Shown in pieces: positions 57,575 through 59,623 of a stretch of 61,646 nucleotides of DNA. The stretch lies in NCBI GenBank assembly GCA_001823925.1, contig MHWB01000010.1:1-61646 (forward strand). The letters are read 5' to 3'. The position numbers and the translations under genes are program-made. Source of the DNA: Candidatus Zambryskibacteria bacterium RIFCSPLOWO2_01_FULL_39_39. GTDB taxonomy: Bacteria; Patescibacteriota; Minisyncoccia; Phycocordibacterales; WO2-35-19. A model generated the notes under the pieces. The model was not told the origin of the DNA. It ran no database searches and was given only the letters and a program-made list of their open reading frames with translations. Each line of letters begins with the position of its first letter. The stretch's first letter is position 1.

Positions 57575-59623
57575 TTACTTCGCAAGTATGGTAAATTCCA
57601 CTTCAGTTAATATTTTTACCCCCAGCCCTACTGCCTTATCATATTTTGAGCCAGGGTTTTCGCCCGCAACTATATAGTCGGTCTCTTTTGATACAGAACC
57701 AGAAACACTTCCCCCAAATTTTCTTATTTTCTCTTTTGCTTCATCACGAGACATATTTTTTAAAGTACCCGTAAGTACAAAAGTCTTACCCTCCAACTTT
57801 CCTTTTCCTAAATTCTGGCTTCTAGATTCTGGCTTCTGTATTTTTACCTGTTTTAGTAATTTATTTAATAAATTCTTATTTTGCTTTTCAGAAAACCAAT
57901 CTGTAATTGAACGCGCCACAATAGGCCCAATACCTTCTATATTTTCTAAATTTTCTATTTTCGTATTTTGTAAATTCAGAAGAGTGCCAAAATTTTCGGC
58001 TAGTAAATATGCTGTCTCTTCTCCAACTTGAGGAATTGAGAGAGAGATAATAAGTCTTGGTAAGGTTATTTTTCTTTTATTTTCTATCGCAGAAAGAAGA
58101 TTGTCTACAGACTTTTCTGCAAATCTTTCTAGTAGTAGCAAATCTCCCTTTTTGAGAGTAAAAAAATCATCATAAGTAGAAACAAGTTCCGCTTCTAAAA
58201 GCTGGTCTATTATTTTTGGCCCCAATCCATCTATATCAAAAGCGTGCTTGCCTGCAAAGTGGTATAGCTTTCTCTTTTTCTGTAAGAAACTATTTTTATT
58301 TTTACATTTCCAAGCGACTTGGCCGGAGATCCTTTCTATCTCCCCGCCCTCCCCACAGTCAGAAACAGTCTTTGGCCAAACAAACTCTCTCTCCTTGCCA
58401 GTTCGCAATTCTTTTAAAACAGAGACAATGTCTGGTATAACATCCCCCGCTTTCTGCAAGACTACGGTGTCCCCCACTCTTACATCAAGTCTTCTTATTT
58501 CATCTTCATTGTGTAGTGTGGCGCGAGAGACAGTAGAGCCAGCAACCAAAACTGGCCTTAGGTGGGCAACTGGAGTAAGCACTCCCGTCCTACCTACCTG
58601 CAAAACTATATCTTCTACTACAGTAGTCACTTGTTCTGCAGGAAATTTGAAAGCAATTGCAAAACGTGGAGCTTTGCCTGTGTATCCAAGTATTTTTTGA
58701 TACTCTATTTCATTTACTTTTATTACTACTCCGTCAATTAAATAGTCCTGGTTTTTTGATTTCTCTTGCCACTCTTTCCAGAATTTTATAACATCTTCTA
58801 TATTATTTACTTTTTTAAAATTTTTATTTACTTTGAAACCGACTCTTTCTAAAAATTTTAGTTCTTCAAATTGTGTTGCCAAGGACTGTCCTTGAACTGC
58901 CCCGCCCCTAAGGACAGTCCTTGGCAACATGGCTACGTCATATATAAAAGAATCCAATTTTCTCTTGGCCACAATCCGAGGATCAAGTTGGCGAATAGTA
59001 CCGGCGGCTACATTGCGAGGATTGGCAAATAAAGAAATCCCCTCTTTTTCTCTTTCTTTATTTATACTTTCCAAAGTTTTCTTGCCCATCCAAACTTCAC
59101 CTTCAACTATAATATCCATCGGCTCCAAGAGACGTAAGGGTACAGAATTTATAGTCCTTATATTTGAGGTGACATCTTCACCAACAACACCATCCCCCCT
59201 TGTTGCTGCTCTTACAAGCTCACCTTTTTCATACTCAAACACAATTTTAAGACCATCAATCTTTAATTCACAAGTGTAAGTAGGATTTGTATTTCCCCCT
59301 GTTTCTGTTTTGAGCATCCTCTTTACTCTAGCATCAAAATCCTTTATATCTTCTTCAGAAAAAGCATCATTAAAAGACCACTGGGGTACTTTGTGGTTAA
59401 CCTTTTTAAATTCCTTAATAGGCTCTCCGCCTACTCTTTGTGTTGGGCTTGTTGGGCTCTTTAGATCGGGATAATTTTCTTCTAAAATACGCAGCTCTTC
59501 AATAAGAGAATCAAAAGCAGCATCTGCAATTTCGGGTTTATCCAAAACATAATACAAATGATTATGTTTCTCTATCAAATCACATAATTTTTGTACTCTA
59601 TTTATTGCCTCTTTTCTGGTCAT
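57575..59623 (-). CDS. ligA: NAD-dependent DNA ligase
   Basis: KLDG adenylation site (CELKIDGLK), OB fold, Zn finger, HhH and BRCT order. The ATG at 59623 (MTRKEAI) is preferred over the track's upstream start. Confidence 0.96.
58875..58928. repeat. 54-bp palindromic element in frame within ligA
   Basis: Perfect 17-bp inverted repeat GTTGCCAAGGACTGTCC / GGACAGTCCTTGGCAAC around a 20-nt G+C-rich loop. Confidence 0.85.

Follow-up and report, generated by a model that had tools for sequence, protein, structure and literature searches.

Rickettsia palindromic elements (RPEs) are palindromic, GC-deviant pieces of selfish DNA that lie in frame in the housekeeping genes of a reduced genome, where they add a fold-compatible extra peptide (PMC10969869). 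In the mitochondria of Nematomorpha, perfect inverted repeats occur in protein genes, are either perfect or gone, and are gained and lost between species; active conversion of one arm by the other or template switching has been proposed to account for them, together with trapping, since deletion in coding sequence is not tolerated (PMC6649704). We describe here a perfect hairpin of 56 nt that lies in frame in ligA, the gene for NAD-dependent DNA ligase, on contig MHWB01000010.1 (61,646 nt, positions 1 to 61,646; this whole stretch is called the window below). The host is a groundwater ultra-small, Paceibacteria/Zambryskibacteria-like bacterium of the Candidate Phyla Radiation (CPR), and hairpins of other sequence are found at the same ligA site in its relatives. 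With a probability of roughly one in two, we read the hairpin as a small palindromic element that exists at the level of DNA and is translated through, whose arms are kept complementary by templated correction and which is exchanged by recombination.

The ligA element resembles RPEs in being an in-frame palindromic insert in a housekeeping open reading frame (ORF), at a structurally permissive site. According to PMC6649704, RPEs measure about 100-150 bp, occur in tens of copies and several families, and have a conserved peptide, and their repeat identity is lost with time. The ligA element, in contrast, is 56 nt long, gives one strict-pattern copy per genome and codes for an unconserved peptide, and it has perfect stems with compensatory change and occupies the same ligA codon position across species. 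The likeness to RPEs is one of architecture and placement, and the host belongs to another phylum. With the Nematomorpha palindromes the element shares a perfect inverted repeat in a translated ORF, a near-binary state, and gain and loss between species. In Nematomorpha, however, both arms encode conserved protein segments, the repeats reach 284 bp and many organelle genes are affected, whereas the ligA arms encode a hypervariable loop of low predicted confidence that is absent from most orthologs. The ligA element is also a short insertion in a bacterial gene, has a loop and apex in common with intergenic copies, and shows evidence of lateral exchange.

[quoted passage not shown] These are extragenic, number tens to hundreds per genome, have conserved REP arms with a GTAG/CGTC head, and are flanked by the gene for a REP-associated tyrosine transposase (RAYT). 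The ligA element is like them in being a non-autonomous hairpin of two inverted arms and a spacer, with a RAYT-like Y1 gene in some of the genomes. It is unlike them in its variable arms and conserved loop and apex, its very low copy number, its copy in coding sequence and the lack of a RAYT gene in the window. [quoted passage not shown] Yeast mitochondria contain mobile GC clusters and byps, which are GC-rich hairpins in AT-rich compact genomes and in some cases lie within genes (the var1 GC cluster, byps), and inversion of a small hairpin loop between perfect arms is a known mutation of chloroplast DNA. All of these are organellar, and byps are skipped by the ribosome, whereas the ligA element is bacterial and always in frame. 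Similarly, byp and gene 60 elements are untranslated and free of constraint on frame or stop codons, while the ligA element keeps the frame and avoids stops.

The hairpin in the window has two 20-nt arms that are 100% complementary and 16 nt apart (Table 1); read in order of position, the two arms are again TGTTGCCAAGGACTGTCCTT and AAGGACAGTCCTTGGCAACA. The original prediction, made from the sequence alone, had described two 17-mers here as perfect reverse complements around a 20-nt loop. Both 17-mers are present and do pair perfectly, so that the inverted repeat itself stands, but its dimensions are changed by three further pairs per arm. The span of 54 nt and 18 codons was right in the number of codons and one base off the codon boundaries in its placement (residues M232-A249 are encoded by 58877-58930), and the peptide is translated in frame inside ligA as it had been written. 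The claim that such a repeat lies far beyond chance is supported by calculation, about 2e-6 perfect inverted repeats of at least 20 bp with a loop of 3-40 nt being expected in 61.6 kb at uniform composition. A search for the arm sequence and folding of the DNA and RNA had also been suggested. The arm has no second match in the 61.6-kb window with up to three mismatches allowed, and none of 100 shuffles gave a match. The predicted folds are far more stable than those of shuffled controls, both as RNA (-40.3 kcal/mol, z = -6.5) and as DNA (-23.3 kcal/mol, z = -7.2). The element has 57% G+C compared with 37% for ligA, and TTG codons are found close to both of its ends. Inversion of the loop in the window creates an in-frame TAA stop.

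Table 1. Coordinates and arm sequences of the ligA hairpin, its same-site counterparts and related hairpins elsewhere. Positions without a locus name refer to the window; L numbers denote other loci.
Feature	Location	Strand	Sequence or context	Stem
ligA, NAD-dependent DNA ligase, 682 aa	57575..59620	-	ORF 57575-59680, real start MTRKEAI at 59620	
5' arm, coding strand	58910..58929	-	reads TGTTGCCAAGGACTGTCCTT, codes (M)LPRTVL	perfect complement of 58874-58893
G-rich 16-nt loop	58894..58909	-	coding strand AGGGGCGGGGCAGTTC, codes RGGAV(Q)	
3' arm, coding strand	58874..58893	-	reads AAGGACAGTCCTTGGCAACA, codes (Q)GQSLAT	
18 added codons, LigA M232-A249	58877..58930	-	from ortholog alignment, AlphaFold model and 2OWO alignment	
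Second family member, intergenic	26308..26347	-	GAGGATGACCCTT / tgggcagggtcttc / AAGGGTCATCCTC, CCTT-loop-AAGG apex; downstream of RNase J-like gene	
Family member	L033 3108-3161		fills spacer between holB-like gene and frr	
Family member	L033 3429-3472		in frame in holB-like gene (DNA polymerase III delta'-like, 3164-3829 minus), as QRGALEENSLRAPLR, opposite orientation	
Family member	L025/L027		AT-rich DNA, stop codons in six frames around hairpin	
ligA hairpin	window		5' arm TGTTGCCAAGGACTGTCCTT	20 bp
ligA hairpin	L010/L022		window arm minus one pair	19 bp
ligA hairpin	L014/L021/L038		5' arm GCCACCAAGGACTGCCCTT	19 bp
ligA hairpin	L015/L030		5' arm GCATTGTCAAAGACGCCCTTT	21 bp
ligA hairpin	L019/L024		5' arm GCATTGTCAAAGACGACCTTT	21 bp
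ligA hairpin	L016/L026		5' arm TGTTGCCAAGGGTAACCCTT (L016 stem in short ..CCAAGGGTAACCCTT)	20 bp
ligA hairpin	L018		5' arm GGTGTCAAGGATGCCCCTT	19 bp
ligA hairpin	L020		5' arm ACTTGTGTCAAGGGTGCCCCTT	22 bp
ligA hairpin	L040		5' arm GCCCCACCAAGGACAGTCCTT	21 bp
ligA hairpin	L012		5' arm as window	2 mismatches

The DNA of ligA orthologs was obtained by protein identity, and in addition by two degenerate DNA patterns in which the positions of the central stem and of the loop were free. A hairpin was found at the same ligA site in 10 distinct alleles (the window and nine others). The loop is 16 nt long in every case, and the stems are free of mismatches in all alleles but L012, with lengths of 19-22 bp and differing arm sequences. 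The loop of L010 equals that of the window, and those of L012 and L014 each differ from it by 1 nt. Every hairpin variant has a length divisible by three and contains no stop codon, whatever its stem or loop. Among the alleles obtained by protein homology alone, six are perfect, one has two mismatches (L012), two are decayed or overwritten (L041 and L042) and one has no hairpin (L017). L041 retains only a decayed 3' arm, which adjoins a different small GC hairpin (CCTCCCCTTATATTAATGGGGGG), and L042 is hairpin-less. The peptide QGESLATQ of L017 resembles the 3' arm; the 5' arm may have arisen by inverted copying of a native 3' sequence, or L017 may be the product of a partial deletion. Formation of this 'empty' allele by slippage between CAAGGAC direct repeats was rejected, as their 29-nt spacing (counted by hand) would break the frame. 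P0121 was considered as a flipped or stop allele, and is merely a gene cut by the end of a contig.

Pairing was counted in 12 sequences, two of them non-ligA members of the family. Changes on both sides occur in 15 of the 22 pairs, with 52 double-changed cells in all. The fraction of paired cells is 92%, compared with 75% in shuffles and 29-48% when the partners are slid, and for four of five measures none of 500 shuffles equalled the observed value. G·U pairs are scarce: there are four such cells in all 22 pairs, and the inner 19 pairs hold two G·U and two unpaired cells. Stems that are perfect while their sequence drifts point to concerted evolution of the two arms.

The history of the hairpin differs from that of the gene. 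Outside the element, the LigA proteins of the window and L010 are 69% identical, and the codons are the same at only 49% of the identical residues, so that synonymous sites are saturated between them. All 18 codons of the element (56 nt) are nevertheless identical, and the identity stops at the hairpin borders. On sequence comparison, the element is younger or more constrained than the ligA that hosts it. The same type-B loop (AGGGGCAAGGGTCTTC) is found in L015, L018 and L019, and the identity among the LigA proteins of these three loci is 78-84%. A distance tree, together with a matrix of identities, places the window beside L040, L042 and L041 (82-86%), yet its hairpin equals that of L010 (72%), and L040, its nearest relative, has other arms and another loop. 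The sisters L014 and L019 (85%) also have different hairpin types. The loop of L040 matches that of the window at 9 of 16 positions when flipped and 4 of 16 directly, and the intergenic loop of L033 at 11 of 16 when flipped. Because it is thus like the reverse complement of the others, we conclude that the ligA site can be occupied in the opposite orientation. In the window, L015 and L016, flipping of the A-initial loop gives an in-frame TAA, while L040 has a base that avoids it. The bias of orientation in ligA is thereby explained, and translation of the element is favoured.

Exchange between strains is seen on the L043 contig (P0126, in the 90%-identity cluster of the window LigA), which shares 99.5% identity with the window across 8.4 kb. 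The ligA of L043 equals that of the window except for a patch of about 96 nt, from 7 nt upstream to 33 nt downstream of the hairpin. In place of the hairpin the patch has GAC TTG TCC GCC GTA GCC TTG GCG AAG GCA GAT GTT GCT TCC CCT AAA ACC, coding for LSAVALAKADVASPK, and its synonymous sites are divergent too. The replacement peptide is a recurrent loop type of other lineages, and no exact donor was found among 120 LigA homologs. The patch shows directly that this segment is exchanged, over short tracts, by recombination or conversion.

The protein that carries the element is LigA. The ORF matches E. coli LigA (2OWO) with E = 6e-167, every Pfam LigA domain is found, and the nearest homologs are named Zambryskibacteria, Paceibacterota or Patescibacteria. 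The order of the type IV pilus genes, ligA, gatC and gatA is kept in relatives. An alignment of 120 homologs shows a hypervariable stretch between the conserved motifs DSFIYD(V/I)A and TQxEEL, with inserts of 0 to about 40 residues. In an AlphaFold model built from a 64-sequence alignment, residues 232-249 lie between a strand (224-232) and a helix (251-261), with pLDDT below 50 at 236-245 and above 90 in the adjoining blocks. E. coli LigA is aligned as 9 residues shorter across the hairpin-coded loop. From the hypervariability in the alignment, the low pLDDT of the model and the shorter E. coli loop, it is therefore predicted that residues 232-249 are a surface-loop extension of the adenylation domain. 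This agrees with the original prediction, which had placed the element in a variable loop of that domain that is shorter in E. coli.

The hairpin-coded peptide type is present in about 14 of the 120 homologs. The original prediction had held that the same residues in LigA of unrelated lineages would speak against a discrete element. Taken literally, this is what is seen within the Paceibacteria, where P0034 is identical and P0012 two residues off; a discrete element is not refuted, because those lineages share the nucleotide hairpin and no conserved protein motif, and most relatives have no hairpin. Other lineages (for example P0004/L041, P0011, P0023, P0045, P0071, P0103 and P0109) have recurrent inserts in the loop such as ..PPTPLYIKGG.., ..HPNPSLTTREGQ.. 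and ..LSAVASAKAD... The loop thus acts as a general sink for hairpin insertions. In a different variable loop, near residue 105, the ligA of P0032 has a second hairpin (L016 2438-2475; AAGGTCGGACCTT tgaaaaatcccc AAGGTCCGACCTT, 13-bp perfect stem), whose AAGGTCCGACCTT motif recurs in L031.

That the hairpin might be an artefact of assembly or amplification, such as a fold-back chimera, was considered in view of the ability of multiple displacement amplification or library chimeras to make perfect palindromes. The identical LigA protein is encoded on at least 23 contigs, and the nine of these that were compared at the DNA level show no differences in ligA, including the element. The contigs (ANAN16 groundwater scaffolds, GCA_001825295.1, MEGAHIT k127/k141, Logan) come from several samples, projects and assemblers, and are independent, which rules out an assembly artefact. 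In addition, hairpins of differing sequence occur at the same ligA site in at least nine other taxa. The probability of an artefact is thus negligible.

Related hairpins were found outside ligA (Table 1). These share the CCTT-loop-AAGG apex and a similar G-rich loop and have other stems. An alignment made by eye with two 1-nt gaps gives 13 matching positions out of 14 between the loop of the second copy in the window, tgggcagggtcttc, and the loop of the type-B ligA hairpins, aggggcaagggtcttc. The copy in the holB-like gene of L033 has a 15-bp stem with one mismatch and the loop agggaattttcttc, and lies 270 nt from the copy in the holB-frr spacer. The strict degenerate pattern gave five matches in 185k species genomes, all of them in ligA and one per genome. 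A looser pattern gave 17 matches in JGI metagenomes, of which five are in ligA and three are genuine hairpins outside ligA that fall into two loci (L033 and L025/L027), the rest being chance matches or other palindromes. Family copies in the 61.6-kb window number two. A dispersed high-copy repeat is ruled out by the uniqueness of the arm in the window and by the strict-pattern matches being confined to ligA, and a phage or plasmid origin was rejected, viral contigs (IMG/VR) and GenBank phages having no pattern matches. The hairpin is also not an intrinsic terminator, since there is no U/T-tract beside it on either strand. A DNA uptake sequence was ruled out because no GC-rich 8-12-mer is over-represented; CCAAGG, TTCAAGG and related motifs occur at expectation. 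In an Rfam scan of the window only tRNAs reached the gathering score, so that the ligA hairpin has no match to a known RNA family.

In the reading that we prefer, the ligA hairpin belongs to a low-copy family of the Paceibacteria (CPR), with about 56 nt, a perfect stem of 19-22 bp, a 16-nt G-rich loop and a CCTT/AAGG apex. One copy would have settled in the hypervariable surface loop of the adenylation domain, the part of ligA most tolerant of inserts, and would be transcribed and translated through there as an 18-residue disordered loop; only the stop-free orientation and frame would be seen because the element is translated straight through. The arms would evolve in concert: by template switching on the folded hairpin, a form of intrastrand templated repair, a change in one arm would either be copied into the second or be corrected against it, and the stems would thereby remain Watson-Crick while the sequence drifts. 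Re-insertion, or else recombination or conversion over very short tracts, would swap the cassette among related lineages and between strains and would yield presence/absence alleles and a distribution of hairpins at odds with the LigA tree. Where maintenance fails, the hairpin would decay, be partially deleted or be overwritten by other GC-rich hairpins. We infer that templated correction is the mechanism, that LigA derives no benefit, and that the route of exchange may include a RAYT-like Y1 transposase or hairpin-induced breakage. Correction of quasipalindromes by intrastrand template switching is, according to PMC7202029, an established mechanism for concerted change of arms. Coding palindromes have been explained by the same logic with the addition of trapping, it being proposed that a palindrome is trapped in an essential ORF because imprecise deletion there is lethal (PMC6649704). 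A purely neutral passenger that is inherited vertically is ruled out by the sub-synonymous divergence and the incongruence with the tree; lateral exchange, active re-insertion or selection at the nucleotide level must therefore contribute.

Several points weigh against this reading. For the pair count, five of the 12 sequences came from a pattern that fixes some stem positions, although the positions that vary were free. The tree is a simple neighbour-joining tree without support values, accompanied by an identity matrix. Both template switching and a mobilising enzyme are postulated. One pattern match per genome in five species representatives is unusual for a selfish repeat, and the conservation of loops within types, across ligA that are 78-84% identical, could mean selection on the loop, that is, a function. 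Finally, simple homologous exchange leaves the sharp borders partly unexplained, since the identity between the window and L010 ends at the hairpin while the L043 tract runs about 33 nt past it.

A cis-acting structure selected in ligA is a tentative alternative. One form would be an mRNA stem, such as perfect double-stranded RNA of about 20 bp that serves RNase III or the control of decay, or that makes translation pause; another would be a DNA hairpin or cruciform in replication or repair. Purifying selection would then keep the hairpin perfect, with the peptide as a by-product. Such a structure would be in keeping with the strong compensatory covariation, the very stable fold, the conservation of nucleotides, loop included, far above adjoining synonymous sites, and the single copy at the same ligA site in five species representatives. 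We nevertheless regard it as unlikely. Most close relatives have no hairpin, or have decayed or other inserts, only about 14 of 120 having the peptide type, and the 99.5%-identical strain L043 manages without one. Family members are found in unrelated contexts and in both orientations, G·U pairs are nearly absent, which is unexpected in a stem selected as RNA, and there is neither an Rfam match nor a U-tract. The occurrence of both orientations fits an element at the DNA level and is less suited to one at the RNA level. Overall, a DNA-level passenger fits better than a functional RNA specific to ligA, because the hairpin is dispensable (absent from L043 and most relatives), decays, is overwritten, occurs in both orientations and in unrelated contexts, and has stems that are almost exclusively Watson-Crick. 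A different proposal, that the hairpin is an invertible intragenic switch in which a flip of the loop gives a stop and turns ligA off, or a site of translational bypass like mitochondrial byp or T4 gene 60, is highly improbable. The in-frame TAA on flipping in three loci and the flipped-type loop of L040 would suit a switch, and the TTG codons near both ends would suit bypass. However, ligA is essential, all recovered hairpin-bearing contigs of the host species have the same orientation, and every variant keeps the frame and avoids stops, a constraint that is expected only if the element is translated. To our knowledge, a 16-nt spacer is too short for recombinase-mediated inversion.

Two further alternatives concern how the hairpin moves. 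It could be a REPIN- or MITE-like hairpin that is mobilised in trans by a RAYT-like Y1 (HUH) transposase that reads the apex and loop of the folded single-stranded DNA and re-inserts the hairpin with a preference for certain targets, in which case the ligA copies would be independent insertions filtered by selection. Two of the loci with hairpins also have RAYT-like genes, at L015 5935-6588 and at L027 3398-4069 (the L027 gene lies 1.1 kb from a non-ligA hairpin), and the best NCBIfam match of these genes is the REP-associated tyrosine transposase NF047646; the scores of 67.7 bits (L015) and 46.3 bits (L027) are, however, under the curated cut-off of 80. The linkage cannot be called an enrichment because all loci were chosen for carrying hairpins. 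The hairpin of two inverted arms and a spacer is as in REPINs (PMC3116915), the apex and loop are conserved in dispersed members, and the L040 element is flipped at the same site. On the other side, the 61.6-kb window gave no RAYT homolog when it was searched by tblastn with the L015 protein, a GTAG/CGTC head and a target-site duplication are both lacking, and the arms are not over-represented (the family has two copies in 61.6 kb, and the strict pattern matches once per genome). This explanation is therefore quite unlikely. In L027, palindromes (GTCCAAAGGC|GCCTTTGGAC) were also observed at the start of and within the RAYT-like gene. The other alternative, which we hold to be similarly doubtful, is a 'homing palindrome', a 56-nt element without coding capacity that spreads between CPR genomes to one ligA codon position and occasionally to other sites. 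Folding might cause breaks, with hairpin-bearing DNA acquired from relatives as the template for their repair, giving a conversion bias driven by the palindrome, or an HUH/Y1 enzyme acting in trans might read the conserved loop. If true, homing would account for the same 56 nt in ligA that are 69% identical, for occupancy in the opposite orientation and for presence and absence at the level of strains.

Several further palindromes were observed in the window. A GC-rich intergenic hairpin at 26254-26280 (TCCCCTCACCTT gcg AAGGTGAGGGGA), with a CCTT/AAGG apex, lies 28 nt upstream of the second family member. In tsaD (9586-10734), an essential gene, an 81-nt GC-rich nested palindrome lies in frame at 10334-10414 on the plus strand. 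It has a 13-bp outer stem (TGACCTCACCCCC/GGGGGTGAGGTCA) around two inner hairpins, codes for ..LTSPPSPLPLSRGGGEERTQFSPGGEVIT.., and is predicted to fold as DNA into a Y shape (-39 kcal/mol, z = -8.25). Thirty-six residues (249-284) face nine in T. maritima TsaD, so the insert is about 27 residues long. A 101-nt Y-shaped palindrome at 59626-59726, with outer arms of 15 nt that pair perfectly (TAATAACGCCCCCTA/TAGGGGGCGTTATTA) and with CCCCCTCTTGATTATAAGAGGGGG as its inner hairpin, makes up almost the whole spacer between the pilus-operon gene and the start of ligA and ends 2 nt before the ligA ATG; it has the motif CCCCC(T/C)AGCCCCCTC in common with the tsaD insert. The segments 16901-16975 and 19199-19881 are GC-rich (up to 47% G+C per kb) and contain several local hairpins. 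They have no ORF of at least 120 aa and no credible Rfam match at a relaxed threshold, and may be unannotated structured RNA or further palindromic elements. L015 has a small GIY-YIG protein that is free-standing, to which 31694-31909 (minus strand) is a tblastn match (E = 4e-11, 42% over 72 aa), and L041 has a LAGLIDADG-like ORF near ligA.

In-frame palindromic passengers are already known from Rickettsia and some mitochondria; full-text literature searches found no description of them in the Candidate Phyla Radiation. The ligA hairpin is an unusually clean case, with one essential gene, one codon position, at least 10 taxa, perfect stems with turnover of their sequence, and a near-isogenic pair with and without the hairpin. 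It makes testable both the active upkeep of perfect palindromes in bacterial DNA and the lateral spread to a fixed site of a hairpin without coding capacity. Such inserts enlarge and diversify conserved marker proteins of the CPR (those encoded by ligA, tsaD and the holB-like gene), and the local recombination mosaics to which they give rise can mislead phylogenies and strain-resolved binning.

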